Source of the DNA: an uncultured Prevotella sp.
GTDB lineage: Bacteria; Bacteroidota; Bacteroidia; Bacteroidales; Bacteroidaceae
Length of the DNA stretch: 64,000 bases
Reading direction: 5' to 3'
Assembly: GCA_963547405.1 (NCBI GenBank)
Contig: CAUURC010000005.1
Span: 3,655-67,654, forward strand
Shown here in pieces: positions 1 to 59,475 of the stretch. Made by a program: the position numbers and the translations under genes. Position 1 is the stretch's first letter. Every line of letters begins with the position of its first letter. The notes beneath the pieces were generated by a model. It saw only the letters and a program-made list of their open reading frames with translations, made no database searches and was not told the origin of the DNA.

Positions 1-1484
1 CGATGGCGTTGGCCCTGATTGATGTTGATTTTCTCGGTGTAGAGGGTATCGTTTCCTACCCGGTCGTTGATGAGTGCGAACTGGTGGGTGGAGTCGTTGG
101 CCATGTAGATTTCGTAATGGTCGGCATCTATCGAACGAGAGGCGTGCCAGGCCAACGTCATATTGCCGTCGACGTCGATAACCGAGCGCAGGCGCGTTGG
201 AGGAAGCGGTGGTATGAGGTCGGCAATAATCATCTGCATGGGGATGGAATGGCTCACATTGCCATTCTTATCGTAGCAGGCAATGGTTACAAGGCCTGTT
301 CGGAGTCCCTGTATATCGATCGTCACCACGCTGTCGCGGGGACTCAGCACCTTCTCGGTGAGTGGTCGCCATTGGTCGCCCAGCAGTTTTTTGTTGAAAT
401 AGCAAGGCAGGAAACCGGCAAAGTCGGGTTCGATGTTGTCTTTCTTCCATCGCAGGATGGCCTGTTTGGGCAGATTGGTCTTCTTCTCACGTAAAATCTC
501 TATCTCATACAGACGGGCCGCTTCCGGGGGGACGAGGTCGGGAAGCGTCACGCTGTGCTCCTCGGAGGGCAGCGTGCGTTCGCCGAAAGCGTCGTAACCG
601 TAGACACGATAGACGTATTTCCCCGGCTGCAGGCCACGATGGACGTAGACAGAACTTGTATCGGGAGCATTCTCGTCGCCACGCTCCATCGACATATAGG
701 GCTTCCGGTTGGCCTTATGCCACTGCCGGCTGTCGGCCATGCGCCATTCGATGTCGTAGAAACTCCAGTCCAGGGCGGGCCACGACAGCATAATATCGTG
801 CGGACCGAGGATGGAATCGGTGAGCTGAGCGCCGAAAGCAGGGCGTGGGGTCGCCTTCACAACGACATCGAGAACGCCCACGCGACGGTGATAGATCACA
901 GAATCGGGTACGAGCGGCACGATGGCATAGTCGTATGAGCGCCCGGGTTCCACTTTCCTGTCGGTATAGGCCAGACCCATGGCTTCGGCCAGGTCGATGC
1001 GTTGTTCGGCCACCACCATGGCATAGCTATAGATGTTCTGCTGCTGGTCGGCTACTTCCATAATCGACCCCATGTTTTGTTTGCGGCTTTTGGTACGATC
1101 CAGCGTCAGATCTTTGGCGCCCCACACCGTTTCGGCAGCAGCCGCGGCAAGAGAATCGTTGACGCCGAAGCGCTTCTTAAACTCGTCAAGGCTGATGGGG
1201 TGGCACTCGGCAATCGTGTCGAGCGTGGCGCCTTCCTCCTTATCGAACGATACGCGCAGAATGCGATAGCCGTAGGGCTGCGTCAGTTTCCAAGCCACGT
1301 AGTCGTCGGGAGCCCAACGCAGCGTGACACTGTTGGCCGTCGCACGGACTACTGCCTTAAGTTCGTGTACTACGGGCTTGGCTGCAGCCTGAGTTTGGCT
1401 GCTGTCAGTCCTCGCTTTTTGTGCATGCGCTGTCAAAGCCGTCAAGGCAATGAGCAGGGCTGTGATATATCTTCTTGTTCTCAT
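1..1484 (-). CDS. secreted FN3-like repeat protein; 3' end truncated by the window edge; absent from the supplied ORF track
   Basis: The minus frame is open from the ATG at 1484-1482 down to position 3. I checked that the codon-aligned + frame contains no TTA, CTA or TCA triplet. The N-terminus MRTRRYITALLIALTALTAHAQ is a signal peptide. Recurrent strands VTLRWAP, IMLSWPALD, AILRWKKD and MTLAWHAS are typical of FN3-type sandwiches. The + ORFs 3..494, 555..938 and 1002..1511 are its antisense shadow. It starts 23 bp downstream of the giant gene. Confidence 0.65.
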   Translation of the reverse strand, partial: MRTRRYITALLIALTALTAHAQKARTDSSQTQAAAKPVVHELKAVVRATANSVTLRWAPDDYVAWKLTQPYGYRILRVSFDKEEGATLDTIAECHPISLDEFKKRFGVNDSLAAAAAETVWGAKDLTLDRTKSRKQNMGSIMEVADQQQNIYSYAMVVAEQRIDLAEAMGLAYTDRKVEPGRSYDYAIVPLVPDSVIYHRRVGVLDVVVKATPRPAFGAQLTDSILGPHDIMLSWPALDWSFYDIEWRMADSRQWHKANRKPYMSMERGDENAPDTSSVYVHRGLQPGKYVYRVYGYDAFGERTLPSEEHSVTLPDLVPPEAARLYEIEILREKKTNLPKQAILRWKKDNIEPDFAGFLPCYFNKKLLGDQWRPLTEKVLSPRDSVVTIDIQGLRTGLVTIACYDKNGNVSHSIPMQMIIADLIPPLPPTRLRSVIDVDGNMTLAWHASRSIDADHYEIYMANDSTHQFALINDRVGNDTLYTEKININQGQRH

Positions 1485-1507
1485 AGTCGGAGTTTTAACA
1501 AGTTATG

Positions 1508-4500
1508 TTAGTAGAAAATCGGCTTTCTGCGCCAGTTCCGCAAGATGTAAGTATTTGCGCTGCGGGTCGCCGGACGCACATCAAATTCATTGGTTTTTAA
1601 ATTGTATCCGGAAACTTTGAATAGATTGAAGTCGTAAGATACAATAGACCGTGAAATATCCTTATCTATGTTGTTTACAACCCATTGACGTTCTGGGTAT
1701 CCGCCACGACGTCTATCCGCCATAGGTCTACGTGTATCATCGGCAACATTGATTCCATAGATATATACCATCTGTATATACGGAATGGCAACGTCGCTTG
1801 GGATATAATGGTAACGATTATAATTGCGGGGGGTGAAGTAATTCATCCAAAGAGCTTGATCCTTATCATTCAACAGATTAAAATTGATATTTTGGGCATG
1901 AAGAAGCATCATGTTATATTTTTTATCCATCTTTTCTTGAGAGCTCAGCTCGGTGTCTCCTTCAATATCCTTTATCACAAGATCATAGTATTTGGGATCC
2001 ATTCCTCCGCAAAAGACACGGAAGTCATTCATTCTATTTCTGACCTTTCCACGATTCCCCTTACCTGCCTTACCCCAAGCATATTCTGATTCCAAATGCG
2101 TTGCATATTTACCCAGATATTGCAACATCTTATTACGCATAGCCCGTAAGGTAACCATCATGATGTTAGCCGTGGCATAATCAGCTTCATACTCAGCGGT
2201 AAGTTTCGTGAACCAAGAATGTTTTTCATCCGGTTCATAGGAGTTATAACGAACCTTGGGTATAATCTGGTTGCGCAACCTATGCCCAATCAATTGATCA
2301 GAATAGGGACTATCAAGATTATAGACACCATCGTATCTTGAAAGTTCTCGACGTGAACACGGCGGGAATTTGATGGAAAGGGCAGGTGTCGATAGAATGT
2401 CTTGCTTGCAAAGTAAACTCCAAGGCATGTGGCAGCTACTGACTGTTCCATAGTTGCCCCAATAGATCATACCAAAATAAGGATCCATTTGCCAAACACC
2501 ATTCATAATAGGATTATCATTATAGGCGAAGCTTTTACTATTACCCGTATAATTAATACTATGTATATTACAATAAGTTCCTTTTTCTCCACCTATGGCA
2601 TCATAGTATTCATAGCGAGTTCCCTTACCCTCTGTTGCGGCAAAGTTGTAGTAATCAGACGTTCGGAAGATTACCCCATAGAGGTAGGTGCTATATGTGT
2701 CTTCCTTCAAAGCGACATGGAACGTACGTATCAGTTTACTGATGGTATCGAGTCCTATCTTGCCGGAAAGTTCCTTGCGATAGTCATTCATATATTTACC
2801 CAAATCTAATTGTGAATCTGAGTTTTGGTTGTTAGACTTCTGGGAACCTCCTGAACCGGTATTCTGACGTTGTTGCTGAAAAGCAAAAGCCTTCATGGCT
2901 ACGTTAACCTTATCCAAGTATTCCTTTTGCTGGGCCTTGTTCACTTGATTGAAGATCAGACGATAGTATTTGTCCGGCTTGATAAACTTGGCAAAAGAAG
3001 CATTGTTTGCTAATTGCCAGATGATATACTCATGGCTTTCGCCTCTTTCTATTCTTTCCTCTACGGGGACATTCTTGCATATTGAGCCGGCATAGCTCAC
3101 CACCTTGACTGTATCTACGCTTGGCATTTCGGGAACATCGATGGGGTCGTCATCGTCCGAACTGCTACTGCTGCTGCCGTAACCATCTAAGGGACCAGGC
3201 TTAATTCCCTCAATAGGTTTAACTCTTACATTGTCAACATCTTTACCCATCTGTTTATCTAATCCTACATATTTCTGTGGTATCTTGGGCGCTATAGTAG
3301 CCAATTCTCCAACAACAGTCATACGGAGGGATTCCATCCGGTTTTCATCGGGTGGCGCGGGCAGGTAGTCCTTTTTACTTGTTTGAACCGCGGCTGTCTT
3401 CTTTTTCTTCTTTGCACGCGATGTCTTGCTCGGCGCAATAGAGTCGGGCTGAACAATAACCAGTTCTTTCAGCTGGCTATTGGTGTTGGCGGGATCGTCG
3501 GCCACAACAGAAACCGCTTCCATATTTTCATTGACTTCTTTTCCTATGTATTTCCAGCCAGCCTGCTTCACCTCATGAGTCGAGACGGAATGGCCGACAA
3601 TCATCTGCGCGTGACCTCTTGAGACTTGCTGTGTTGAATCTTTACCATTTGCCCAGACGAATTTCCCGGTCTTAGGATCTATATAACCATGTACTACCCT
3701 ACCATCTTTGGATGTTTGTGTGCTATCTTTTGTACCTTTTACATGGACAACTTTCCCTGTTACAGGATCCTTATAGGAAAAACCCTCTTCTATCCATCTT
3801 TTCCTACGGGCTTCCGCTTCCTCGTCTTCCACTGTTCTTTGGTTTTTCCTTTCCTCTTCCTTTTTTCTCTTTTCTTCTTCTCGTTGTCTTTTCTGTTCGG
3901 CTACATAGTCATCAATTTCTTTTTGCTTTTGTGCTTTAGCCGCATCCAGTCCGACGGCCTTACCATTCTTCATCGGATAGAAGGCTCCGTCGAATTTGCA
4001 ACCAATCGCTACCATTTTCTGATCAGGAATCTCCCATTTTCCGGTTGAACTATTGTAGATTTCCAAATCAACCTGCACCTCGTGTTTATCGTCCCATTTG
4101 TCCGCTCGTGATCCGCATAGCGACAGATAAGGCTTAGCGGCTTCCTCCAAGTAAGCATCTTTGCGGAGAGAGTTTCTCCATGCGCTTTTACTGCTTTCAG
4201 CCGGCCGTGCCAACTTAACGTCGCAGATGATATCTGTCGGCAGATCACCCGTTCGGAAATAAACAATCGACGTATCGCGCCAAGCACGATGCACATCTTT
4301 ATAATTAGAGAGCGAGTCGTTGAAGATAGGATCTACCTCATAACCATTAACTAATTCCTTGGCATAACCTGTCAGCGTTAGCTTATAGAACTTATTAGGT
4401 AGCAAACGACCAATTCCTGCCAATGAGAAAGACTCATGGTCGCTGGTCTTGCTGGAGAGCTGATACGTTTTTGAAGGCGATTTATCCTTTTTGTCTTCAA

Positions 4501-7500
4501 ACTGCTCAAGCTTCATAAACTTATCCGTATGGAAGATATAGACACGTTGTGCATTGAGTGCATGCTTCATGTGATCTTCGTTACGTTTTGCCCTTTTATA
4601 AGCTTCCTTCTCATCAACCAGACGCAACTGACTGCCGATGGTCATATTGGTTGTATAACGTGACTCGGTATAGACACTAATCTTGTTGTTGTCGTCCCAT
4701 CCTTCATTCTTGTCTTCTTTACCGGGTTGTACGTCCTCAAAAATCTTGATGTCATCAAGCGGATTGGCAAAAGTAGGCATGCAGACGTGACCTGCCTTGA
4801 TTTCAACCGATCCGTTGAATTTGATGAGTCCTCCAAGCAGTTTAGCCCTAGCTTTCACCTTGCCATAGCACCACGCCGGATTGGGAAGTCCGCCTTTGAG
4901 GACGGCTCCTACCGTTGCGTCGACAATGGGCAATTTGCCTTTGAATATCCAAAGATTCAGCATCAGTCCCAGCTCACCATGCGCGTATGCGTAAATCTGA
5001 CCATTGGCATAGAAGCCATTTTTACCGGCATTACGACCATCGCCACATTTGGCTGCCTGCAGTTTCTTGAGTGCCAGATCAAAGCCGGCTATCATATCGA
5101 TTTCGGCATAACATACCACAGCATTCAGTGCCAGTTCGCCACTGACACTGGCGCCTAACATCACGCCACCTTTGGCTTTACCCTGAAATTCCCTAAACAT
5201 AGTCTCGGTCTGGCTTCGGCCGGGCGCAGCTTTGCTACCAAGGAACTCTTCTACCTTACTAGGCAATGGCGGCAGTTCTCCGTTGTCCGGAAGTTCATTG
5301 CCTAAACACAGATAGGCATCGGCCTCTATCTTGCAACGCAAATAGATAGGGCTGCTCGACTTACCCACTTGGAAATCAATGAAAGTAAAGATACAACGTT
5401 CCGCCGCTTTAGGTTTACCTAAATAGAAATGCCACTTGGTCGGGAAATCACCCTTATGGCCATCAGGTTTCATCGTAATTTTAAGCTCAATCGGAATCTT
5501 TACACCTGCCTTGGCTTTCACTCCACCTTCGGTCTTGTGTCCAGAATCATCGTCGTTCTTGGCATCAAAGCCCGCCATGTCAGCCAGTTTGTCCTCGTCG
5601 CTTATTTTGTCATAATCTACACCTGTGAAATCTTTAAACTTCTCTGTCATGTCCGCACTCGCGTCAATGGTGATGTTGAGTGTCAGCGATTTCTCTTCTT
5701 CCGTATTCACATAGGCTAATCGTGCCTTGGCTTTGATAATCGCGTCTTCCGGTTTAGTGGCATAGAGCGCGTAGACATCACCTTGGATGATGAAGTTTGA
5801 GAGTTTGTTACGCTCCTTATCATAAAGAACGATAAGCTCCATGGGGGCTGATACGAGATTGTCGGTGCCCATCGTGCTAATGGTCAGTCCTAACTTACCG
5901 CCATAACAGCCATACTTCGGATTCTTGCTAATATCGCTATTGATAAAGAAGCCGCCACTGATTCCATTGATCTGGACAGGAGGAATCTGTATGCCTGTCT
6001 TCATACTAACCGAAACATCAAATGCCGCATAAGAGTATGTGCCCTCATCGTCGCTTGATTTGGTGCGCACAGCTTCGCCCCAAGCTCCATCTACGGACAG
6101 CTTGAACAGGCCATTCATGTCGATGCTCAGGCCGCCGCTATAGCCATAACTCTTCTTCTCCTTGCCATTCACCGTCAGGGTGGTTTCTTTCATCTCGAAC
6201 GAGCCTGTAACATTGACGCCGCCGAAGCCCGACTTGATAATGGCTTTAGCAAACTGGCAGTGATCCCAGTCGAAGTCCAGATTATCAAGATCAACCTTTC
6301 CCCACAGCACGATACCCGCACCGGCCACAAGCTTGTCGTCCATGAAGCCGATACTGCCTTCGAGATTGAGACCTACAAACTTGCCATTATTGCGTATGCC
6401 TATGTCATCGAGCGTGAAAGTGAAAGAGCCTAATTTCTTTGTAGGTGAAGCCAGTTTCCACTGTCCTAAGCTGAAGAAGAAATCACCATTAGGTGACGCA
6501 TACTCATAAACAGAGTTCCCTTCAAGCTCATTTCTCGCATTCTCGATTTCTTTTTCTACATTGTCGTTCTTCTTCTCGCTGTTATTCTCGGCAGCTTTTA
6601 CCTTGTTACTTTCATTCTTACGAGCCTGCTCAACGAGTGACCGCTCTTTATCCGGTGTTCCGAAGTTGGCCAGTCGGAAGCCTGAGAACGCAACTTCAGG
6701 AACTTTCAAACCAATGAAGGTCTTGTCCTTGGTACCGTTAATCGATATTTTTCCACCCATGCACAATTCCACACGGGTTTTATTGTTTTCAGACTCTACG
6801 AAGAAGTAGGTCTGTTCCTTTTCCAGTGACATCGTAGCAAGGAAGGCGTCAAGATACAATTCCTTTTCCACCTGCTGCGTCTTAAACGTATATTTAAACG
6901 AACTGCCGTTGTCCTTCTGCGTTCTGGCAATCGCGCAGTCATAGCCTATCTTACCCCTCTCTTTTTTACCTTCCGTATTATTCTGTTTGAGTAGCGGTAC
7001 ACTAAACTGACCATTGAAGCCGGCTTTCTTGAAGTTATTCTGTAAGACATCGAAGTAGATTTCGTCTAACGATAACGACCAACCACCAACCTTACAAGTC
7101 CTCAAATCAACAATATTCTTAGCAGAGATGTTGAAGGTGATACCTGACTTGTCGAGATAAAGCCCCTTGACGCTTAGCGAAATGCGCTTGTCTTTATTCT
7201 TACCGCCTTTTCCACCCTTTTTATCGTCAGCTACTTCCACCACCGTCGGGAACTTCATCGTGAACTCGTCAAGATAGAATCCCTTCCAGACTTCTGCTGT
7301 TGCCCCCGTACTATTGAGTTTTTTAAGGTCATAGTCCTTTGGAAGCTTAAAGCCTGCCACATTGGATTTGGCCGAGTGGTCGAACGTTATACCCTTGCCC
7401 GTCGCAACGAAGGTATAGCCCGGGGCATCCTTCACCTGGAACGGATCGAGCGCTACCGTGGCTGTCCAGTCGTTCCAGCTGTACATGCGCGTGCGTACAT

Positions 7501-10027
7501 TTACTATATAAGGCGCATCAGATACAAAGTTACCGTTGCCGTCATCTTTGATCATGTCGGGGATGTTCATATCCATCTCCACGGCCAGACTGCTGATTGT
7601 ATCGGCATCCCACTGCAGATAACAACCGTCTTCGGCATTGGAAGGCTTCTTAGGAGCCTTGAAGGTGTAGTTGTATTGAGAATCAGGATCCTTGACCGTC
7701 ACGTCACTCAACAACGACAGACATCCCGCTTCAGCAAACAGTGCGTTGGGCCTGATGCACTGACGGGGCGCACCGAACACAAGCACGTCGGAAGAGGTGT
7801 AGTCGCTTTCAGGCATGACGAAGAAACCCATGACGTTCATCCAGGATGTATTGGCAGAGAACTCCGCTTTCATAATCTGAATGTCGAGCGGGGTCTTATT
7901 GATGTGCTTCGGCAACTTCAACGGCAACGTGAGCGGACCAAGTTCGGTATTGGCCATATTGTCAATCAACATACAGCCGTCCTGCAGCCACTTGTAGTAT
8001 TTAGCCAAGTCCTTATCCTTCTTCAGATAGTTTGTCAGATAACTACCATAAGTCTCGGTAGATCCCAAGAAGTCAAGCCCCCAGCTGTCGAACATGTCGT
8101 AAGGAATGAAGTTGCGGTCTACCTCGGCCGAAACAACCTTACCGTCGTATACCTGACGCTCCTTATTGATAAAGAGCGTATCGAACTTCACACTGATCTT
8201 AATCTTTGAATTCAGCGGCATCCAGGTCACGTATCCCGTTCCCTTGTAGCACTCCTTGCTTTTGCCTCCGATAGTTACGCTTATCTTCTCAATCTTCTCT
8301 ACCGTCAGGTCGAAGTCTCCCACCTTTACGGTCTTGCCCTTGAGGTTGTCATTAGAGAAGTCGCCCAACGTCTTGTCCTTGATGGCATCGGAAGCACCCG
8401 GATGACAATCGGGGAAGCGTTCGTCCAACGGTGCAAGGTAAGTAAGGTCGGCAAAGTTTCTCTCGTCTTTGCCAATCTCTATACCGTCCTTGCCGAACGG
8501 ATAGTTCACCGTGACACGCAGTCGGATCCGATCGGAGCTACCGACAGCCTTCTTCAGTTCATCCCACGGAATAGAATCGGTAAGTTCCGTAATGTCTTTC
8601 TTCACGTATAACGGCTTACTTGCCTTGAGTGAGTCTTCCGTCTGTCCCGTCTTCCACTTCCACACTTCAACCTTATAATTCAGGGTGAGCGTGTCGGATT
8701 CCGCAGCAAGGCCTTCAGACACGACAGATCGATTCCAAGCCACAGAGATAGGCTTGCCGGTCTGTAAGGTAAATGTATGAGCATCCTCACGATCGGGACG
8801 CGGATTGGTCAATACAGGCTGCGCAATATGATACTTGCATTTCAAAGTATCGGTAGAATCTTTCTGCGCCGTAGAGTCTGCTTCCTCCGCAGAGTCTGTT
8901 TGCTCCGAGTCTGTTTCCTCTGTTGTTGTTTCATTTTGGTCATAGTCGGAGCTTCCCTTTTGATTTGGAATTTCAAAAACAAGCAGTTCACTCTTTCCTT
9001 CATTCTGCAACAGTACGTAGTTGTTCTTTTCGCCCGTGTTTACCCCTATGGGTTCGGCCGTCACCTGACAAACGTACATGCCGGGAGAGCTGGCTATCCT
9101 CTTTATGATAGTCGTCGGCAGCATGCAATATGTACTGAGCAAGCCCGACCGTCGATAGACATCGGCCCCGTATTGTATGGCTTCATCGGCCGTCTGACCC
9201 AAGATGGCTTTCACGATACGCAACGAATAACGATACTGACGCTTTCCGGCACATGCCGTCATAGGCGGTAGCCATTCCAGTCTCGGTCCGAAAGGGTCGT
9301 ATTGGGTTTGCGGGAAAAATTCACCACGCCTTCTCCTATCAATATTGTTGGCGCCTTTTTTGGTCTTTTTTATACTTTCATAGGGCTTCTTCTTGTTAGG
9401 TACATGGATTTTCAAGAAATCATATTCTATAAGCGATGACGGCGCAAAGGATTGGATGAACCGTGGCGCTGAGCCCGAGTAGCAAACGTTGAACATACAA
9501 TGTCCCATGATGGGATCGCTGAGCACCTCAGGGTTACGACTGCCGGGATTATAACGATACGCCGTGATTTGTCCCGAGTAGGTGCCTTCGGGTAGCAGCG
9601 CGATGATGCCACGTGTGTAGTCCGTCAGCGTACCGCCGGTCATGCGAAGTTGGTTAACGCTGAGATGACGGAAAAGTTGCTTCTGCGCAACGATGTCCAA
9701 AACCAGTAACTTGTGAGGTAACAGAACGAGTGGCTGCTGAGGTAAAGCCTCGGGTGGCGTCGACAACGACAGTTTAGAATCCGGCGTCACCTGCTGAATC
9801 TCAAGACCCAGATAGACGTTGAGAACCTCATCGGTGACATTCTCTAAAGATATTTGGAAGTATTTGCCGGGATCGCCGATATAATTGAGCACGGCGGGAG
9901 GCATCGGGTCGTACTTAGGACTGACCATTATCTTCACCTGTCCCTGGCCCATAGCGTTGAACGTGAGGGCAACAAGAACGGTTAGGGTCGCGAGGACGCG
10001 CTTGAGGATGATATTCATTGCATTCAT
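1508..10027 (-). CDS. giant (2839 aa) secreted or envelope protein of unknown function
   Basis: A single uninterrupted 8.5-kb ORF. The N-terminal hydrophobic segment ILKRVLATLTVLVALTFNAMGQ looks like a signal peptide or anchor. Low-complexity linkers are present: acidic ETDSEQTDSAEEADSTAQKDSTD, charged EQKRQREEEKRKKEEERK, AKKKKKT and SSSSSSDDDD. The protein ends in ...KPIFY. I recognised no catalytic motif. Confidence 0.85.
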   Translation of the reverse strand: MNAMNIILKRVLATLTVLVALTFNAMGQGQVKIMVSPKYDPMPPAVLNYIGDPGKYFQISLENVTDEVLNVYLGLEIQQVTPDSKLSLSTPPEALPQQPLVLLPHKLLVLDIVAQKQLFRHLSVNQLRMTGGTLTDYTRGIIALLPEGTYSGQITAYRYNPGSRNPEVLSDPIMGHCMFNVCYSGSAPRFIQSFAPSSLIEYDFLKIHVPNKKKPYESIKKTKKGANNIDRRRRGEFFPQTQYDPFGPRLEWLPPMTACAGKRQYRYSLRIVKAILGQTADEAIQYGADVYRRSGLLSTYCMLPTTIIKRIASSPGMYVCQVTAEPIGVNTGEKNNYVLLQNEGKSELLVFEIPNQKGSSDYDQNETTTEETDSEQTDSAEEADSTAQKDSTDTLKCKYHIAQPVLTNPRPDREDAHTFTLQTGKPISVAWNRSVVSEGLAAESDTLTLNYKVEVWKWKTGQTEDSLKASKPLYVKKDITELTDSIPWDELKKAVGSSDRIRLRVTVNYPFGKDGIEIGKDERNFADLTYLAPLDERFPDCHPGASDAIKDKTLGDFSNDNLKGKTVKVGDFDLTVEKIEKISVTIGGKSKECYKGTGYVTWMPLNSKIKISVKFDTLFINKERQVYDGKVVSAEVDRNFIPYDMFDSWGLDFLGSTETYGSYLTNYLKKDKDLAKYYKWLQDGCMLIDNMANTELGPLTLPLKLPKHINKTPLDIQIMKAEFSANTSWMNVMGFFVMPESDYTSSDVLVFGAPRQCIRPNALFAEAGCLSLLSDVTVKDPDSQYNYTFKAPKKPSNAEDGCYLQWDADTISSLAVEMDMNIPDMIKDDGNGNFVSDAPYIVNVRTRMYSWNDWTATVALDPFQVKDAPGYTFVATGKGITFDHSAKSNVAGFKLPKDYDLKKLNSTGATAEVWKGFYLDEFTMKFPTVVEVADDKKGGKGGKNKDKRISLSVKGLYLDKSGITFNISAKNIVDLRTCKVGGWSLSLDEIYFDVLQNNFKKAGFNGQFSVPLLKQNNTEGKKERGKIGYDCAIARTQKDNGSSFKYTFKTQQVEKELYLDAFLATMSLEKEQTYFFVESENNKTRVELCMGGKISINGTKDKTFIGLKVPEVAFSGFRLANFGTPDKERSLVEQARKNESNKVKAAENNSEKKNDNVEKEIENARNELEGNSVYEYASPNGDFFFSLGQWKLASPTKKLGSFTFTLDDIGIRNNGKFVGLNLEGSIGFMDDKLVAGAGIVLWGKVDLDNLDFDWDHCQFAKAIIKSGFGGVNVTGSFEMKETTLTVNGKEKKSYGYSGGLSIDMNGLFKLSVDGAWGEAVRTKSSDDEGTYSYAAFDVSVSMKTGIQIPPVQINGISGGFFINSDISKNPKYGCYGGKLGLTISTMGTDNLVSAPMELIVLYDKERNKLSNFIIQGDVYALYATKPEDAIIKAKARLAYVNTEEEKSLTLNITIDASADMTEKFKDFTGVDYDKISDEDKLADMAGFDAKNDDDSGHKTEGGVKAKAGVKIPIELKITMKPDGHKGDFPTKWHFYLGKPKAAERCIFTFIDFQVGKSSSPIYLRCKIEADAYLCLGNELPDNGELPPLPSKVEEFLGSKAAPGRSQTETMFREFQGKAKGGVMLGASVSGELALNAVVCYAEIDMIAGFDLALKKLQAAKCGDGRNAGKNGFYANGQIYAYAHGELGLMLNLWIFKGKLPIVDATVGAVLKGGLPNPAWCYGKVKARAKLLGGLIKFNGSVEIKAGHVCMPTFANPLDDIKIFEDVQPGKEDKNEGWDDNNKISVYTESRYTTNMTIGSQLRLVDEKEAYKRAKRNEDHMKHALNAQRVYIFHTDKFMKLEQFEDKKDKSPSKTYQLSSKTSDHESFSLAGIGRLLPNKFYKLTLTGYAKELVNGYEVDPIFNDSLSNYKDVHRAWRDTSIVYFRTGDLPTDIICDVKLARPAESSKSAWRNSLRKDAYLEEAAKPYLSLCGSRADKWDDKHEVQVDLEIYNSSTGKWEIPDQKMVAIGCKFDGAFYPMKNGKAVGLDAAKAQKQKEIDDYVAEQKRQREEEKRKKEEERKNQRTVEDEEAEARRKRWIEEGFSYKDPVTGKVVHVKGTKDSTQTSKDGRVVHGYIDPKTGKFVWANGKDSTQQVSRGHAQMIVGHSVSTHEVKQAGWKYIGKEVNENMEAVSVVADDPANTNSQLKELVIVQPDSIAPSKTSRAKKKKKTAAVQTSKKDYLPAPPDENRMESLRMTVVGELATIAPKIPQKYVGLDKQMGKDVDNVRVKPIEGIKPGPLDGYGSSSSSSDDDDPIDVPEMPSVDTVKVVSYAGSICKNVPVEERIERGESHEYIIWQLANNASFAKFIKPDKYYRLIFNQVNKAQQKEYLDKVNVAMKAFAFQQQRQNTGSGGSQKSNNQNSDSQLDLGKYMNDYRKELSGKIGLDTISKLIRTFHVALKEDTYSTYLYGVIFRTSDYYNFAATEGKGTRYEYYDAIGGEKGTYCNIHSINYTGNSKSFAYNDNPIMNGVWQMDPYFGMIYWGNYGTVSSCHMPWSLLCKQDILSTPALSIKFPPCSRRELSRYDGVYNLDSPYSDQLIGHRLRNQIIPKVRYNSYEPDEKHSWFTKLTAEYEADYATANIMMVTLRAMRNKMLQYLGKYATHLESEYAWGKAGKGNRGKVRNRMNDFRVFCGGMDPKYYDLVIKDIEGDTELSSQEKMDKKYNMMLLHAQNINFNLLNDKDQALWMNYFTPRNYNRYHYIPSDVAIPYIQMVYIYGINVADDTRRPMADRRRGGYPERQWVVNNIDKDISRSIVSYDFNLFKVSGYNLKTNEFDVRPATRSANTYILRNWRRKPIFY

Positions 10028-10049
10028 AGTTATCGGTTCTTACGGCGTT

Positions 10050-11765
10050 TTACTTCTGTTTCTTGGAGGCTTTACGCTTGAGTTCCAGCAGCGTGAAGGT
10101 ATAGTTGTAGCTTAGGTTGCAGGTTAGGTCGTAGCTGGAGTACTTCATGACATCGACGATGTTCACGTCGTTGTAACGGCTATAGCCTGCGCTCAATGAG
10201 AATGAGTGGACTTTCTTCAGCGTGTAACCGGTATAGAGGTCAACGCCCATCGACCAGTTCTTGTTCTGGCCGGAGATGTGATTGCGGCAAACAGACAGCG
10301 TCAGCGAAGCCGTGAGGTTCTTATCGGCCAGAAAAGAACGGCCGGCTGTACCGGATATGACGTCTGAACTGTATTTACGCTCATAGCCTTCTGATGTCTG
10401 GTGGCTGTAGTTCAGCCCGAAATCGGTCTGGATGCGCTCCACGTTCACGCCATAGCCTGCGCCATAAGAGATCGTCTTCACGTCGCTCTGGCCCGTCGAA
10501 AAACGGTTCAAGTCCTTATTCTGTGTGTAACCACCCGTAACACTTACGGTGTGGCTGTTGCCACCGGCCTCGAAGGAGTAGCTCGGGGCAACGTGTAGGT
10601 TGTGCATGATGCGGTTCACGCGCGTCGTATCGTTCACCGGCATGGTGCCCGCACATTGCTGCTGAAGGTAGCCGCTGTAGCCGGCCGTGACATTCAGATT
10701 GCTCGACAGGTTCACAACAGCATTGGCCGAGTAAACATAGCCACGTGTTGTATAGAGTTGTTTGTTGTTGAGGTTGTCGTTCTGATAGGCGAAATTACCG
10801 GAGAACATGACCTTGCGCGTGGGCGAACCGCTCACCGAAATCCCCAAACTCTGATAGTTATTGCTGATATAACTCAGTCCAAGAGACATGTAGTCGGGCT
10901 GAACCAGCTTATAGGAAACGGAAGTAGAGAAGCGGCCCAGAGACAGGTTCAGGTTCACATCGCCCGCAAAGCGGTATAGCGAACTATAGCGGGCGTCGAA
11001 GATTTTTTCCCATTTGTCAATCTCTTTCGAATGGATACGTTCGGATTCGAGATCGGTTGAGAAGATCGACGCGGCCACATTGGCCGTCAGCGACATCCAC
11101 TTGGCCACGGAGGTGTGTCCGCGAAGCGCTACCGACAGATTCTCCTTGGCTTCAGTCGTGCGCCGCCATTCCGTAGCAAGAGAGCTAAGACGGTCGTAAC
11201 CTTTGAAGACATAGAGGTCGAGATAGTGGCGACTGGAACCATAACCAACTTTAAAGCCCCAGCCTAAACGGCTGTATTGGGGTTTGCGTGCGTTGGGATC
11301 CAGTGGATTATCATTGATGGCATGGCGCAGACGACCGTAGAACATGCCGAAGCGTAGCTGCTGAGCCTTGTATTCAAGTCCGGCTCCTTCGAAAGGGATA
11401 TTATAAATGTAAGGCGACATCGACATGACGTGCGTGCCTAAATGGAGCGTCCAGTTCTTATATGTAGGACTGATATTAAAGGAGAAGCGAGGATAGCTAA
11501 AGTTAATGTCGCTGTTGGAATAATAGAAAGAAAAAGGCATATTGAACCCATAGAAGCTAAGATTGAGGTTGGCATATACCGAATTGCTCAACGGAGAGGT
11601 CAGACCACTGCTCGCTGAATGGTAGGAATTTTGCGTACCTACGGCACCCGTCATAATCAGAGGGTCGCTCTTGGCTATCTGGGAGATATCCTGCGACCGT
11701 ACCGTGGCAGGAACCAGGCTGATGAAAACGGCTACAAGGCCGCTGTGGAATAGGGTTGCTTTCAT
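10050..11765 (-). CDS. predicted outer-membrane beta-barrel protein (571 aa)
   Basis: Signal peptide MKATLFHSGLVAVFISLVPATVRSQ. The sequence is rich in Y/S/N/G with alternating hydrophobic strands throughout (e.g. NLNLSFYGFNMPFSFYYS, LTASLTLSV, SFSLSAGYSRY). It ends 22 bp upstream of the giant gene. Confidence 0.75.
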   Translation of the reverse strand: MKATLFHSGLVAVFISLVPATVRSQDISQIAKSDPLIMTGAVGTQNSYHSASSGLTSPLSNSVYANLNLSFYGFNMPFSFYYSNSDINFSYPRFSFNISPTYKNWTLHLGTHVMSMSPYIYNIPFEGAGLEYKAQQLRFGMFYGRLRHAINDNPLDPNARKPQYSRLGWGFKVGYGSSRHYLDLYVFKGYDRLSSLATEWRRTTEAKENLSVALRGHTSVAKWMSLTANVAASIFSTDLESERIHSKEIDKWEKIFDARYSSLYRFAGDVNLNLSLGRFSTSVSYKLVQPDYMSLGLSYISNNYQSLGISVSGSPTRKVMFSGNFAYQNDNLNNKQLYTTRGYVYSANAVVNLSSNLNVTAGYSGYLQQQCAGTMPVNDTTRVNRIMHNLHVAPSYSFEAGGNSHTVSVTGGYTQNKDLNRFSTGQSDVKTISYGAGYGVNVERIQTDFGLNYSHQTSEGYERKYSSDVISGTAGRSFLADKNLTASLTLSVCRNHISGQNKNWSMGVDLYTGYTLKKVHSFSLSAGYSRYNDVNIVDVMKYSSYDLTCNLSYNYTFTLLELKRKASKKQK

Positions 11766-11808
11766 CGCTTCGAAGGGTTAGATTGACTAAAGGTGATTAA
11801 ACCGGATG

Positions 11809-11836
11809 ATGTCCCATGCCGGATTGCATGGGACAT
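11809..11836 (-). terminator. perfect 10-bp stem hairpin in the 89-bp gap between the adhesin and barrel genes; possible partial terminator or processing site
   Basis: atgtcccatg (11809-11818) pairs with catgggacat (11827-11836) around an 8-nt loop. On the minus strand it is followed by only a weak U-rich stretch. Confidence 0.3.
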
Positions 11837-11854
11837 TTCCATTAGAGAGAATGA

Positions 11855-14800
11855 TTATCTGACTACCTTCTGAGAGAGGGTGCGTCCATCTGTCGTCACG
11901 ACAGTTACGATATATACGCCCAAAGGCAGTCGCGTCAGATCTGTTTCATTGAAGAGTTGCGTGTTACCGTTGACACTGCTCACACGGAAGCTCTTTACCT
12001 GGAGTCCGTTGAAGCGGAGTCGTCCGGCGACCACCGTGATTTCGGAAGACTCAGCGGTTATCTGTCCGACAGAAGTGGTACCGCCGGCTTTCATCACGAC
12101 CGGTTTTGCCAGACTGCCGGCTATCTTATCAAACTTCATATCACCCGCGAGCAGGCGGTATTCACCCGTCACTTTATCGTAGAGTTTAAAGCTGATGGTT
12201 TCGCCGCCCTTGCCATGCACGGTAATGAAGTAGAGACCTTCCACCAAGCGACCTTCGCCGCGACACTCATCGCCTACAAAAGCACCCACGGTATAGTCGG
12301 AGGCACGTGTCAAATCGGGCACTTCGGCAATGATAGTCATGTTATCGGCAAAGGTCGCGCTGTTATATGTCCATATACTGGCTTCAGCCGGGCCGTTGCG
12401 CTTGGCGGGTGACACGGCAGCTGGTTGTGGAAGCATACTTTCTCCAAAGAAATACAGTTGATCCATACCCTGGCTCAAATCGGGATTATAGAACATATAC
12501 CCCTCGCCGGCCTTCAAGGTGGTAAGATCGCCTGTCCATCCGGAACCATTGTATTCGGCAAAACCGCTGTCCTTCGATACGATGCGTGAACCCGTTACAA
12601 TAATTCCGTCGAGCATGATGCTGCTTAGCGGTCGGTCATACTGGTAAGGATAGGCTATCCAGCTCCAAGGCTGTTTCACATAGATATGGCAGCCTTCGGT
12701 CGGGAGATAGTCGATGGTCGACGTCGCGGCCGCGACATTCACCGGAGACACGCCGTCCTTGAGGCGTACCTTATAGCACTTGTTCTTCTCCAGCCCGATC
12801 AGCGTTCCGAAGTAGCCATACTGCGCGTCGTTATAGAGCAGAGCATTGTCGGAGCGTATCTCAAGCAGCTTGTCACCATAGATTTGCTGCAGACGGGACT
12901 TGTCGACAGGAGCGGTGAAATAAGTGCGCCACTGCCATCCGGCAGCGTCATTAAGTTCCTGACCGATAATGATGGTGGCCTGACCCATTGACGTGCCGTT
13001 ATACTGTATGTCGATCGTACCCTTGCCCACCGAACGGGGCTTGATGGTCCATTTCAGACCCGTAGCGTCGGCCGCGGTAACCTCCGTAAACTTCCATTCG
13101 GCAGGGAAAGTGGTGTCGTTGTTGGTTATAACGACGTTCAACCTTGCAGGATCAAACGGGGCGGTAGCCGGAACAGGCGTCAGCTTCAATTCCTGCGCGG
13201 TGCGGTGGCCCATGATTATGTTGTCACAGGTAAAGCCCGTCAGGCTCTGCATGACGTTGACGGTAAACGTCTTCGTGAGTGTCCGTTCTGTATTATAAGG
13301 TATGGTGGAACCCGTATTCAACCGTGTCTCCTTATCAGTATATGTGACGGTAAGATGAGCCGTGCCTATACCATTGGCCAAAACATAATAATTTGCTGTT
13401 GGATTAACATTTACCTCTACGATATCGGGATCATCCGAAGTAAACTGATATTTGTCGGCTGCCGGTGCGGTCGGCGTAAAGGCGAAGTTACCTAAAACCG
13501 CAGTAGAAACATCCTGATAGCCGTTGCCATTCGGAAGCCAGTCGATATTGAGCGGATCCTTCGTAATGTTAAGGTTCGTAACGACAGGTTGCACATGAAC
13601 CTTGAACGAACAAGAAATGCCATTGTCGGTCGATGCCTGAACTACAGCCTCTCCCTCTTCTACGGCTTTGATTTGTCCGTTATTCTCTATTCGAAGCGAA
13701 GAACCTTGAGTTACCGTAAACTTCGGGCCACTATAGGCCGCGTCTTCAGGATCGGGATAGACATTAGCCTTCAGAAGATTAGTAATGTCATTACCTTTAT
13801 ATACATAGAGGTCTGATAAATGGGCCTTCAAGGCTTTCAGGCCCTGTACAATGTTGACGCCAAACGTCTCCTTGAGTGTCCTTTCTGTATTGTAAGGAAT
13901 CATGGAACCCGTATTCAAACGCGTCTCCTTGTCGGTGTAGGTGACGGTAAGATTGGCTCTGCCTGTACCGTTGGCAACAATATTATAATTTGTCGTAGGA
14001 CTAATGCCTACCACCTCTACGATATTGGGAGCATCCGAAGTGAGCTGATATTTGTCGGCAACCAATGCGGTCGGCGCAAAAGCGAAGTTTCCTAAAACCT
14101 CCGTAGAGATATTCTGATAGGCGTTGCCATTCGGATTCCAGTCAATATCGAGCGGATTCTTCGTAACGCTAAGGTTCGTAACGACAGGTTGCACATGAAC
14201 CTTGAACGAACAGGATACGTCGTTGTCGGCCGATGCCTGAACTACAGCCTCTCCCTCTTCTACGGCTTTGACTTGTCCGTTATTCTCTATCCGAAGCGAA
14301 GAGCCTTGAATAACCTTGAACTTCAAATTATTATAAACAAAATCTTCAGGATCGGGATAGACATTAGCCTTCAGTAGGTTGGTGATGTCATTACCTTTAT
14401 ATACATAGAGGTCTGACAAATGAGCCTTCAAGCCTTTCAGGCCCTGTACGATGTTGACGCCAAACGTCTCCTTGAGTGTCCTTTCTGTATTGTAAGGAAT
14501 CGTGGAACCCGTATTCAAACGCGTCTCCTTGTCGGTGTAGGTGACGGTAAGATTGGCTCTGCCTGTACCGTTGGCAACAATATTATAATTTGTCGTAGGA
14601 CTAATGCCTACCACCTCTACGATATTGGGAGCATCCGAAGTGAGCTGATATTTGTCGGCAACCAATGCGGTCGGCGCAAAAGCGAAGTTTCCTAAAACCT
14701 CCGTAGAGATATTCTGATAGGCGTTGCCATTCGGATTCCAGTCAATATCGAGCGGATTCTTCGTAACGCTAAGGCTCGTAACGACAGGTTGCACATGAAC

Positions 14801-16045
14801 CTTGAACGAACAATAAATACTGTCGCTGAAAGTAGAAGCCTCGATTACGGCATCTCCTTCTTCTACGGCTTTGACTTGTTCGTTGTTTACTATCTGAAGC
14901 GAAGAGCCTTGAATAACCCTGAATTTCAATTTATTATAGACCGATCCTGCAGGCTCGGGGTAGACATTGGCCTTCAGCAGATTGGTGATGTTATTACCTT
15001 TATATACATAGAGGTCTGACAAATGGGTCTTCAAGGCTGTTGCCCGTTGCTGAACCTTCACTTTCAGCGTGGCCGAGTAGTTGCCGTAAGTAGCCCTTAT
15101 CGTATAATTACCCACCTTTTTAGGTATCCACTCGCCGTTGACCGCCGAAAATACAAGGGCGGAAGGATCGCTGGGAGTCAGCTGAAGCGGCACGGTAACA
15201 CCCTCGGGAAGTATCTTAAAAGCATTGCGCACATAATAGGTCAGGGTAGAGACGTCGTTCAGATTGACAACAACGCCATTGCCATAGCCGGGAGCCAGCG
15301 TCAAACCCGTGACAGTTTGGCGCTCTACGATAACCCGTGCTTCAGCAAGTTGCTCCTTAAGCCAAAGCTGATAATATACCTTCATGATCGCGGAACCCTC
15401 ATTTTCCTTGATACCTTTCAACAGATGGTAGTCCGTAATAGTGAAATAATCACGATGATAGCCTTGAAAGCCTGCGTTGATAGGTTTGTTGGCATTGGCC
15501 GGCGTCAGCTTTACGTAGTTATTCAAATCGATTGTCTGCCCCACGTTCACGCGAATGGGATCGGGTGAAAGCTCAAACTTCTTCGGCTCTATGAATGTCA
15601 GATGATGACGATTACCGGCCGGCCCTCCGGGGGGTGTGAATCCGTTCTGGTATTTATAGGTAGTCGTTCCCACGACAATATACTCCATCGACTGCGTATA
15701 GTTACTATTATACGGCTCCACCATCAGTCTGAACTCCACCTTCTTACCGTTATCAGCCGCTGTTCCCTCGATACGAAGCGGAAAATAGCAGACTTCACCG
15801 GGTACGGAGGGGAAATACCCCCCCTCAGCTTTCACCTCACCACGGCATTCACCATTAATGAAAGCGCCCAACGTGTAACGCCAGATAAAGTTGCCATTCA
15901 TAACGGCATGACCCGAACCATCTACAAGATCGGCATAAACAACACACTGACCACTATACTGACCATACTGGTATGACCAACCGGCATACGCTCCTAAATG
16001 CGTCAGGAGCAGGAGCAAGGTTATGAGTGCAAATAATTTTTTCAT
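11855..16045 (-). CDS. Ig-like (Big_2-type) repeat surface adhesin with T9SS C-terminal sorting domain (1396 aa)
   Basis: Signal peptide MKKLFALITLLLLLTHLGAYA. Three to four roughly 200-aa repeats carry Big_2-like segments (KANVYPEP...VKAVEEG.AV..AS....SCSFKVHV). The C-terminus ...LPLGVYIVTVVTTDGRTLSQKVVR resembles a T9SS CTD. A related GAF.(N)GECRGEG module occurs near both the N- and C-termini. Confidence 0.85.
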   Translation of the reverse strand: MKKLFALITLLLLLTHLGAYAGWSYQYGQYSGQCVVYADLVDGSGHAVMNGNFIWRYTLGAFINGECRGEVKAEGGYFPSVPGEVCYFPLRIEGTAADNGKKVEFRLMVEPYNSNYTQSMEYIVVGTTTYKYQNGFTPPGGPAGNRHHLTFIEPKKFELSPDPIRVNVGQTIDLNNYVKLTPANANKPINAGFQGYHRDYFTITDYHLLKGIKENEGSAIMKVYYQLWLKEQLAEARVIVERQTVTGLTLAPGYGNGVVVNLNDVSTLTYYVRNAFKILPEGVTVPLQLTPSDPSALVFSAVNGEWIPKKVGNYTIRATYGNYSATLKVKVQQRATALKTHLSDLYVYKGNNITNLLKANVYPEPAGSVYNKLKFRVIQGSSLQIVNNEQVKAVEEGDAVIEASTFSDSIYCSFKVHVQPVVTSLSVTKNPLDIDWNPNGNAYQNISTEVLGNFAFAPTALVADKYQLTSDAPNIVEVVGISPTTNYNIVANGTGRANLTVTYTDKETRLNTGSTIPYNTERTLKETFGVNIVQGLKGLKAHLSDLYVYKGNDITNLLKANVYPDPEDFVYNNLKFKVIQGSSLRIENNGQVKAVEEGEAVVQASADNDVSCSFKVHVQPVVTNLSVTKNPLDIDWNPNGNAYQNISTEVLGNFAFAPTALVADKYQLTSDAPNIVEVVGISPTTNYNIVANGTGRANLTVTYTDKETRLNTGSMIPYNTERTLKETFGVNIVQGLKALKAHLSDLYVYKGNDITNLLKANVYPDPEDAAYSGPKFTVTQGSSLRIENNGQIKAVEEGEAVVQASTDNGISCSFKVHVQPVVTNLNITKDPLNIDWLPNGNGYQDVSTAVLGNFAFTPTAPAADKYQFTSDDPDIVEVNVNPTANYYVLANGIGTAHLTVTYTDKETRLNTGSTIPYNTERTLTKTFTVNVMQSLTGFTCDNIIMGHRTAQELKLTPVPATAPFDPARLNVVITNNDTTFPAEWKFTEVTAADATGLKWTIKPRSVGKGTIDIQYNGTSMGQATIIIGQELNDAAGWQWRTYFTAPVDKSRLQQIYGDKLLEIRSDNALLYNDAQYGYFGTLIGLEKNKCYKVRLKDGVSPVNVAAATSTIDYLPTEGCHIYVKQPWSWIAYPYQYDRPLSSIMLDGIIVTGSRIVSKDSGFAEYNGSGWTGDLTTLKAGEGYMFYNPDLSQGMDQLYFFGESMLPQPAAVSPAKRNGPAEASIWTYNSATFADNMTIIAEVPDLTRASDYTVGAFVGDECRGEGRLVEGLYFITVHGKGGETISFKLYDKVTGEYRLLAGDMKFDKIAGSLAKPVVMKAGGTTSVGQITAESSEITVVAGRLRFNGLQVKSFRVSSVNGNTQLFNETDLTRLPLGVYIVTVVTTDGRTLSQKVVR
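13241..15040 (-). repeat. 3 x 600-bp in-frame tandem repeat inside the adhesin gene
   Basis: Shadow ORFs recur with an exact 600-bp period (13589/14189/14789 and 13820/14420/15023). About 13845-14210 and about 14445-14810 are nearly identical; several 60-nt lines match exactly. The other half of each unit is more diverged. Confidence 0.9.
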
Positions 16046-16153
16046 GATGTTTACAATGGTTCGGCCATAAAACCGAATACTTTATTAAGTGAAACTTTTT
16101 GTTTTATACCTAAGGTTCGTTACGATCAACAAGGAGAAAGTATCTCCTATTTG

Positions 16154-16161
16154 CAAAATTA
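16154..16161 (-). promoter_or_regulatory. candidate Bacteroidota -7 promoter box (TAATTTTG on the minus strand) for the envelope operon
   Basis: The + strand reads caaaatta, which is TAnnTTTG on the minus strand. It lies about 110 nt upstream of the ATG at 16045. Confidence 0.3.
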
Positions 16162-16404
16162 AAATATAATGAAACAAAAGTTATGAACAATTTGGCCAAC
16201 TTTATGGAATATATTGCCAATCTTTCATTCGTTTATGGACTAAGAAAGAAATTATTATGGATAACTCTTTGATAATCAATAGCTATTTTGTCCAAACCAA
16301 GCACTTCGTATTAACCCTTCATTTATGCCTTTCAAACAAACGAAAAAGACATTTCTGCCCCCAAAACAAGATGTTTTACCTTGTAATATGTCCGTTTACC
16401 AAAA

Positions 16405-16490
16405 ATTACCACGGCGTGGTAATCTCTTTACCAGGCCGTGGTAACAACATTACCACACGGCTGGTAATCATATTACCACGTAGCGGTAAT
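16405..16490. promoter_or_regulatory. array of four phased palindromes, TTACC(A)-N5-7-(T)GGTAA; candidate operator array or REP-like hairpins
   Basis: The four sites are attaccacggcgtggtaat (16405-16423), ttaccaggccgtggtaa (16428-16444), attaccacacggctggtaat (16449-16468) and attaccacgtagcggtaat (16472-16490). Their centres are about 22 bp apart. Confidence 0.55.
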
Positions 16491-16524
16491 TCCGTCATCG
16501 CTTACTATTTAGTACTATAAAATG

Positions 16525-16554
16525 CAAACAGGCCGGATGATTCCGGCCTGTTTG
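16525..16554 (-). terminator. rho-independent-type terminator after the glycerophosphotransferase-like gene
   Basis: A perfect 13-bp stem, caaacaggccgga / tccggcctgtttg, with a 4-nt loop, sits 20 bp past the stop at 16574. On the minus strand it is followed by cattttat. Confidence 0.6.
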
Positions 16555-22922: not shown

Positions 22923-22927
22923 GACGT

Positions 22928-22965
22928 CTTTCCACGTTCCGTTTGGGACGTGGAAGGCTTTTTTT
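22928..22965 (+). terminator. rho-independent terminator after the metalloprotease gene
   Basis: ttccacgt (22930-22937) pairs with acgtggaa (22948-22955), followed by T7 at 22959-22965. Confidence 0.6.
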
Positions 22966-23001
22966 GAGAGATTTTTATTTATAACTTGTAATTTATATCT
23001 T

Positions 23002-26082: not shown

Positions 26083-26109
26083 TCGTTCCACCTTCAAAAC
26101 ATTTCAATT

Positions 26110-37998: not shown

Positions 37999-38003
37999 AA
38001 CGT

Positions 38004-56147: not shown

Positions 56148-56155
56148 AAATAGGT

Positions 56156-59458: not shown

Positions 59459-59475
59459 ATAAAAATATTATTAGG

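Follow-up and report, generated by a model that had tools for sequence, protein, structure and literature searches.

A 64-kb window of DNA from an uncultured Prevotella sp. (contig CAUURC010000005.1) carries, at its left end, four genes that we call A, B, C and D and that make up most of a conserved Bacteroidota envelope cassette of the order A-B-C-D-E(-F). The interpretation that we favour, with a probability of roughly 40%, is that the products of these genes form an outer-membrane complex in which the beta-barrel protein B anchors and/or exports the giant protein C independently of a type IX secretion system (T9SS), with D as a partner and with A and E docking through a shared domain, referred to as X. 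A bolder proposal about the B-C-D core is offered tentatively, and we find it doubtful: the core might be an undescribed outer-membrane machine of the Bacteroidota and a new export or display pathway, in which a plug-less 26-strand barrel exports and/or anchors, at the cell surface and without the T9SS, a Sec-dependent protein of 250-550 kDa, an FN3 rod serves as the third subunit, and the accessories are attached through X as a private docking domain.

Conservation of the cassette and its core

According to the list of open reading frames (ORFs) and their translations, the minus strand carries A, B, C and D, separated by gaps of 89 bp (A-B), 22 bp (B-C) and 23 bp (C-D), exactly as given in a first-pass annotation of the window. 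That annotation described a four-gene unit built around the giant protein. The four genes are real, but the unit comprises five or six genes: in every relative D is followed by a lipoprotein gene, E, and in most of them by a further one, F, and D is cut by the window edge. Likewise, C does belong to the core, but the core is B-C-D, and the adhesin gene A is an accessory. The products had been read as an adhesin with a T9SS sorting domain, a predicted beta-barrel, a protein with a signal or anchor sequence and an FN3-like secreted protein, and these four readings agree with the results described below. In near-identical contigs of the window's own lineage the order is A-B-C-D-E, with a D of 730 amino acids (aa) and an E of 229 aa encoded just past the position of the window edge.

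One genome per species was scanned, relatives were present in 158 genomes, and synteny was evaluated in the best 80 loci (about 23 kb were compared for each related locus). In all 80, wherever the contig extends, the genes follow the order A-B-C-D-E(-F) on one strand with median gaps of 15-92 bp, and pairwise comparison confirmed the orthology of the neighbours across C-bearing contigs. Loss of these neighbours among relatives had been named beforehand as an outcome that would speak against a common apparatus; the synteny proved strict in the best 80 loci, and the B-C-D core was found again at a distant locus. The carriers are mainly rumen, gut and oral Bacteroidales, most of them assembled from metagenomes. 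Among cultured carriers, Segatella baroniae DSM 16972 is the closest (72% identity); Prevotella sp. 885 and Hallella bergensis are others. C is 2,400-5,000 aa long across the Bacteroidales cassettes.

The distant locus, L087, comes from an environmental metagenome of unassigned taxonomy. Here B, C (2189 aa) and D are adjacent, with D recognised at E = 2e-116, and A, E and F were not detected. This adjacency indicates that B-C-D is an ancient core, and A, seen only in Bacteroidales loci, is regarded as an accessory. Ahead of B-C-D at this locus are genes for a sensor histidine kinase and a LuxR-type response regulator (4347-7110, plus strand), followed by a lipoprotein gene with collagen-like GPxG repeats (7196-8275, plus strand). 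An exhaustive profile search with residues 1165-1760 of C yielded a family of 1758 representatives at 50% identity, 638 of them with E <= 1e-30 and none of them named; one member is from the flavobacterial genus Brumimicrobium. A word-indexed search with full-length C gave 10 matches, a number that is no measure of rarity, as a query with residues 1165-1790 gave no match at all and missed even a relative of 92% identity.

The barrel and the giant protein

An AlphaFold2 model of B, computed from an alignment of 44 sequences, is all-beta with 26 strands at a predicted local distance difference test score (pLDDT) of 77.7, and it contains no plug, no POTRA and no other periplasmic or soluble domain. 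From this model, B is predicted to be a plug-less 26-strand outer-membrane beta-barrel. When the model was compared with the PDB using Foldseek, MtrB ranked first (template modelling (TM) score 0.49), followed by the FimD/PapC usher barrels and LptD. These are matches at the level of fold, with TM scores of 0.28-0.49 and about 10% identity, and they show how large barrels resemble one another in general; they do not place B in any of these families. Pfam gave no match of B to the LptD, MtrB or usher sequence families, and neither the jellyroll of LptD nor the extra domains of ushers are in the model.

Searches of family libraries dated 2025-2026 gave no significant Pfam, NCBIfam or PDB sequence-family match for B. 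Omp85, ShlB and POTRA were without a match in 44 B homologues, PorP_SprF had none in B or 43 homologues, and the generic OMP_b-brl model touched just 2 of the 44 family members scanned. At least 781 homologues of B exist, every one labelled hypothetical. For C there was no significant Pfam or NCBIfam match either, and a PDB profile search was empty, so that the earlier statement that neither protein could be assigned to a characterised family still stands.

All four proteins, A to D, start with an N-terminal signal peptide, and the predicted +1 residue is Gln in B, C and D; Gln after the cleavage site is usual for exported Bacteroidota proteins. In the C family the signal peptides were read by inspection as a small-x-small pattern followed by Gln (e.g., ...NAMG|QGQ, ...VMA|QEV and ...TYA|QQP), which makes the sequence one of the cleavable type. 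C is conserved from residue 28 to about residue 2000, with many invariant Cys, Gly, Pro and aromatic positions. Past about residue 2000 conservation falls, and the last ~840 residues are poorly conserved: between the window and the Segatella baroniae type, identity is 70% in the core and 33% in the tail.

Residues 561-1760 of C gave an AlphaFold2 model of low confidence (pLDDT 56; predicted TM score, pTM, 0.35). In this model about 35 long strands run antiparallel, are joined by short turns and fall into three blocks, which are split by charged disordered loops. The strands are 12-21 aa long, with one hydrophobic face (mean Kyte-Doolittle value 1.5, up to 3.4) and one charged face. Foldseek matches were weak, with TM scores of 0.12-0.17 that allow no fold assignment, and included LptD and the ApoB100 beta-belt; neither TamB nor VPS13 was among the top 50 matches listed for this low-confidence model. 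The idea that the C core is a duplicated B-like barrel was tried and rejected (profile-profile probability 0.2%). Within the core, residues 1245-1368 match DUF6603 at 18.9 bits, below the Pfam gathering threshold of 27 bits, and a below-threshold match to the same region was obtained for 4 of 10 homologues and for one distant member, so C and DUF6603 may be remotely related. DUF6603 is a family without known function, and we found no literature on it.

An amphipathic meander of this kind, with one very hydrophobic face, might also form a groove across the periplasm. C would then be a bridge that carries lipid or some other hydrophobic cargo in the style of AsmA/TamB/YhdP or Lpt, with B as its docking barrel in the outer membrane, as TamA/TamL is for TamB and the LptD barrel for the Lpt bridge, and with D as a support. 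The weak LptD and ApoB100 matches agree with such a bridge, as do the 26 strands of B, a number shared with LptD, and the minimal distant C proteins, which are about the size of the core and suggest an independent function for it. However, the models for TamB, AsmA, DUF3971, LptD and DUF490 had no match at E <= 0.1 in 14 C-family members, in line with the first-pass remark that C has no TamB/DUF490 tail. Moreover, the signal peptide of C, read by inspection, is cleavable with Gln at +1 and is not an uncleaved inner-membrane anchor, none of the cassette genes encodes an inner-membrane protein, and a protein of 2,400-5,000 aa with leucine-rich repeat (LRR) or immunoglobulin-like (Ig) tails is unlike any AsmA-like protein. 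According to PMC12045153, Bacteroidota already possess a separate TamL-TamB module. A lipid bridge is therefore considered unlikely.

The first-pass annotation had also used the charged linkers of C as an argument against an SprA-type integral barrel. The SprA models (NCBIfam SprA and the Pfam SprA N-terminal domain) indeed gave no match at E <= 0.1 in the window's C and 10 homologues, but the linker argument itself is not decisive in view of the ~35 amphipathic strands.

The tails of C are modular in the relatives. Among 16 tails, six carry LRRs, and DUF285 and Ig/ASH/filamin modules are found as well; one further homologue has LamG-type domains. LRR, Ig and LamG-type modules are typical of surface-exposed binding proteins, and the LRR, Ig and DUF285 modules point to display of these tails at the surface. 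No T9SS sorting domain was found in any of 342 giant-family sequences, a set with some duplicates. A hidden sorting domain in C, D, E or F was also considered and rejected, as a profile derived from A proteins matched only A proteins. As C has no sorting domain, its tail, if extracellular, needs another route to the surface, for which B is the obvious candidate.

Some tails contain a ribosomal domain: 1-5 tandem copies of the L7/L12 C-terminal domain (CTD) are present in 14 of 251 giants, in most cases at the very C-terminus, and their identity to the E. coli L12 CTD is 36-48%. In the ribosome this domain binds translational GTPases; we know of no precedent for it in a Sec-exported giant protein.

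The tails raise the question of whether C delivers a payload to neighbouring cells, with B exporting it in the style of two-partner secretion (TPS) or contact-dependent inhibition (CDI) and the polymorphic C-terminus acting on the recipient. A barrel gene directly upstream of a giant secreted-protein gene, an N-terminal part of ~2000 aa that is conserved before a variable and modular C-terminus, the L7/L12 CTD copies that end some tails, and the presence of two cassettes in some genomes are all as such a system would have them. The proteins themselves are not. B lacks the POTRA, ShlB and Omp85 signatures and has 26 strands in place of 16; a TPS or haemagglutination-activity domain was absent from C and 9 homologues; and no toxin family was recognised in the 16 tails. 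C is followed not by a small immunity-like gene but by D, at a median distance of 20 bp, and the tails of the window and Segatella baroniae types, at 33% identity, are homologous and not swapped cassettes. We hold contact-dependent delivery to be the least likely of the explanations considered here. Both this toxin role and the TamB-like bridge are less likely than anchoring or export of C by B.

Accessory proteins, regulation and a working model

A is assigned to the T9SS by its sequence. With the sorting-domain families TIGR04183 and PF18962, full-length A gave a weak match; its last 150 residues reach the curated cut-off of TIGR04183 (23.6 bits against 23, E = 3.7e-5). A match of this type is found in 45 of 74 A orthologues (best E value 2.7e-9), and a profile built from A sorting domains matched 83 of 83 A proteins and none of the B, C, D, E or F proteins. 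A is thus a T9SS type A cargo by its sequence, and a predicted surface protein. No T9SS genes are among the window genes scanned. Between its tandem repeats and the second X domain, A has a conserved middle part. The X domain, ~100 aa long, is present in two copies in nearly every A and in one copy, at the C-terminal end, in every E, and in no other cassette protein; it had no match in Pfam or the PDB.

D is 730 aa long at full length, as determined from a near-identical contig, and 730-820 aa across relatives. Residues 227-311 (nt 552-806) match the fn3 model at 29.9 bits against a cut-off of 25, comparison with the PDB gave generic FN3 matches alone, and no curated Pfam, NCBIfam or PDB family covers the full length. 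As judged from these matches, D consists of FN3-like domains in a chain, with a signal peptide in front. E (225-265 aa) and F (~800 aa) both have a lipobox followed by an acidic stretch and are probably surface lipoproteins; F was without a match in PDB sequence and profile searches. That E (225 aa) and F (800 aa) form a chaperone-usher pair was rejected, as neither a PapD nor an usher match was obtained and both are lipoproteins.

A regulator gene adjoins the cassette in 46 loci and encodes either a tetratricopeptide repeat (TPR) protein with an AraC-type helix-turn-helix or a hybrid two-component protein. No such regulator was detected inside the window by tblastn, and none directly adjoins the cassette in the window's lineage. 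Regulators of these kinds are typical of Bacteroidota nutrient loci, one of them has a faint TPR_SusR signature, surface lipoproteins and Ig/FN3 modules are common in nutrient loci, and the carriers live mainly in the rumen, gut and mouth. A substrate-capture complex for host or dietary polymers, analogous to a non-Sus polysaccharide utilisation locus or a cellulosome, was therefore weighed, with B as an uptake channel and A, C, E and F as binders. However, neither a SusC/TonB-dependent transporter nor SusD nor any carbohydrate-active enzyme is encoded in the cassette, B has no plug, TonB box or transporter-family match, and B-C-D occurs with different neighbours in the environmental locus of unassigned taxonomy. 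Substrate capture is accordingly thought to be very unlikely.

At its 5' side the transcription unit of the cassette is bounded by the strong intrinsic terminator of the unrelated upstream gene (Table 1). In the control region upstream of A, a TAATTTTG motif at 16154-16161 is similar to the Bacteroides -7 promoter box and, by the Bacteroides promoter consensus TAnnTTTG, is a predicted promoter element. Four imperfect palindromes of ~19 bp (TTACCAC-N3-5-GTGGTAA type) with a 22-bp period are located further upstream at 16405-16480. In its exact form the palindrome was found once in the window, where 0 copies were expected, and in none of 86 related loci; the palindromes may be a lineage-specific operator array. 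The tight spacing of the genes suggests that the cassette is co-transcribed, and there is no canonical terminator in any of the three A-D gaps. The A-B gap contains a hairpin (predicted fold -22.6 kcal/mol, z = -5.05 against shuffles), which may act by read-through attenuation, stabilise the A transcript, or set the ratio of A to B-C-D transcripts.

In the complex that we favour, the parts would work together as follows: all cassette products would cross the inner membrane via Sec, and B would insert in the outer membrane as a barrel of 26 strands without a plug; C, through its conserved amphipathic beta core of ~2000 aa, would associate with B and the outer membrane, which would make B the dedicated anchor and/or export pore of C; the variable C-terminal region of C would reach the cell surface with no need of a T9SS sorting domain; D would be a structural partner or spacer in the shape of a rod with about seven FN3 domains; the accessories of the Bacteroidales would be A, brought to the surface via the T9SS, together with E and F; A and E would dock through their X domains onto one shared partner (C or a common ligand); and the adjacent TPR-AraC or hybrid two-component regulator would turn the cassette on. 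As a whole, the complex would be modular and regulated and would serve in surface binding or contact. Barrels of the size of B (LptD, MtrB and the ushers) house or pass another polypeptide.

Several points weigh against this model. The contact between B and C, and the location of C, are what we infer. The C-core model is poor, as are its Foldseek scores, and the tail of the window's own C has no recognisable adhesin domain. The C proteins of the distant subfamily are ~2,100-2,300 aa long, near the length of the conserved core, and, judging from this length, they probably have little or no variable tail; if so, tail display is not the ancestral function of B-C-D. We know of no pathway in which a protein of 250-550 kDa is exported by way of a 26-strand barrel without a plug, and no energy source for export is evident. 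Finally, the stable hairpin after A may partly uncouple A from B-D.

If B and C are truly an export or anchoring pair, they would constitute a new route to the surface for very large Bacteroidota proteins beside the T9SS, and would explain how giants with LRR or Ig modules and no sorting domain arrive there. Were C to act as a lipid bridge, the task of traffic between the periplasm and the outer membrane would have been solved a second time, by unrelated means. Either way, the cassette offers targets for work on adhesion and colonisation, on recognition by phages or the immune system, and on homeostasis of the outer membrane. The C-family giants are among the largest proteins of these bacteria. 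Prevotella, Segatella and their relatives dominate rumen, gut and oral communities, and envelope biology has come mostly from a few model species, none of which is among the 80 carriers listed (of 158 genomes with a relative).

Some further observations concern the surroundings of the cassette. In 20 loci a DUF1573/HYDIN-type Ig protein of ~150 aa is encoded beside it, either upstream or downstream. Two divergent whole cassettes are present in each of six genomes (L051/L053, L049/L056, L034/L058, L045/L063, L021/L066 and L074/L086), often with a short C (~2,400-2,700 aa) in one and a long C (~3,100-4,600 aa) in the other. Segatella baroniae-type loci have a second 571-aa ORF upstream of A that has no family match and is not homologous to B.

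Elsewhere in the window, 37977-44147 (plus strand) encodes a polymorphic-toxin-like protein of 2056 aa with SpvB, FG-GAP and RHS repeats, and several small ORFs downstream of it (44147-47240) could be immunity or orphan modules. One SusC/SusD-like pair lies within 20367-27882 (plus strand), after a DUF4953 Met-zincin gene. A second pair (54732-59458, minus strand, within 54732-60603) has a FecR-type anti-sigma gene upstream (59476-60603) and PKD-like (52510-54024) and thioredoxin-like (51296-52504) genes downstream. Both loci are of the ordinary Bacteroidota nutrient type and have no relation to the cassette.

Table 1. Positions of cassette features in the window, and of selected features in related loci and proteins
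Feature	Position (nt)	Strand	Residues (aa)	Basis or remark
Gene D, first 494 of ~730 aa	1..1484	-		runs past left window edge; core component
Gene C, 2839 aa	1508-10027	-		ORF and translation
C, fast-evolving C-terminal tail and stop codon	1508..4027	-	2001-2839	
C, conserved part	4028..10027	-	1-2000	conservation; core component
C, amphipathic strand region, ~35 long strands	4790-7183	-	949-1746	AlphaFold2 model
C, DUF6603-like stretch	5924-6295	-	1245-1368	sub-threshold
C, signal peptide	9947-10027	-	1-27	
Gene B, 571 aa	10050..11765	-		ORF and translation; core component
RNA hairpin in A-B gap (predicted)	11809..11836	-		11-bp perfect stem, no U-tract, 19 nt past A stop codon
Gene A, 1396 aa	11855..16045	-		ORF and translation
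A, type A C-terminal sorting domain	11858-12082	-	~1322-1396	
A, X domain copy 2	12083-12382	-	1222-1321	just before sorting domain
A, three tandem repeats	13233-15038	-		~200 aa / ~600 bp each
A, X domain copy 1	15668-15982	-	22-126	just after signal peptide
Gene A upstream control region, 479 bp	16046..16524	-		sequence reading
Intrinsic terminator of upstream gene	16525..16554	-		13-bp stem, 8 G-C pairs, T-rich tail
Glycerophosphotransferase-like gene, upstream	16574-17647			Pfam assignment; unrelated to cassette
DUF1573 protein, L005	5366-5809			
DUF1573 protein, L006	26430-26813			
DUF1573 protein, L028	21998-22444			17 further loci
Second 571-aa ORF, L002	2520-4235	+		
Second 571-aa ORF, L007	824-2539	+		
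L7/L12-CTD copies, L023			4282-4665	5 copies
L7/L12-CTD copies, L027, L067				4 copies each
L7/L12-CTD copies, L035, L039				3 copies each
L7/L12-CTD copies, L016, L018, L022, L082				1 copy each
L7/L12-CTD copies, P0164, P0228, P0140, P0179, P0226				

Comparison with known systems

Except for A as a T9SS cargo, no test placed a cassette protein in a known system (SprA, TamB/AsmA, TpsA/TpsB, PorP/SprF, LptD/MtrB/usher and CDI were considered), and literature searches on the cassette, DUF6603 and giant Bacteroidota proteins found no description of the cassette. For these reasons the cassette appears to lie outside every described kind of system, and its mechanism is one that we infer. The first-pass suggestion of an undescribed surface apparatus was not refuted and has gained strength from the strict synteny and from the recurrence of B-C-D at the distant locus.

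In type Vb secretion (two-partner secretion and CDI), a barrel gene likewise adjoins the gene for a giant Sec-exported protein with a conserved N-terminal and a variable C-terminal part, and the barrel is the dedicated partner of the giant, as B would be in our model. However, B has 26 strands without POTRA or Omp85 features, C lacks a TPS domain, no immunity gene is present, and another three to four conserved envelope genes (D, E, F and A) belong to the unit.

LptD-LptE and MtrB-MtrA share with the cassette a barrel for which 26 strands are predicted and which has no plug of its own, as well as lipoproteins and secreted partners encoded alongside. The differences are that identity is ~10% with no model match, that B has no N-terminal beta-jellyroll like that of LptD, that the multihaem partners of the Mtr system are absent, and that the proposed partner of B is a protein of 2,400-5,000 aa.

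The translocation and assembly module (TamA or TamL with TamB) and AsmA-like bridges such as YhdP also combine a large, beta-rich, amphipathic protein with an outer-membrane barrel. C differs from these in lacking a DUF490/AsmA signature and an inner-membrane anchor and in having adhesin-type tails, and B is not Omp85-like.

The sprCDBF-type loci (SprB with PorP/SprF) are specific to Bacteroidota as well, and place a T9SS cargo adhesin beside a barrel and large accessory proteins. The first-pass comparison with an adhesin and its dedicated barrel, of unusual composition, was a reasonable one in this respect, with A a T9SS cargo and B a predicted 26-strand barrel. The sorting domain of A, however, is of type A and not type B, B is larger and has no PorP/SprF match, C has no sorting domain, and B-C-D recurs at a distant locus where no A-like gene was detected.

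Adhesins of the LapA type, which use type I secretion, differ in their parts: the cassette has no ABC transporter (ATP-binding cassette transporter), membrane-fusion protein or TolC-like component, C has no RTX (repeats-in-toxin) repeats, and C would leave the cytoplasm via Sec. In concept, however, they are alike, as in both cases a giant modular protein would be tethered at the surface by a conserved N-terminal module that sits in or under an outer-membrane channel.

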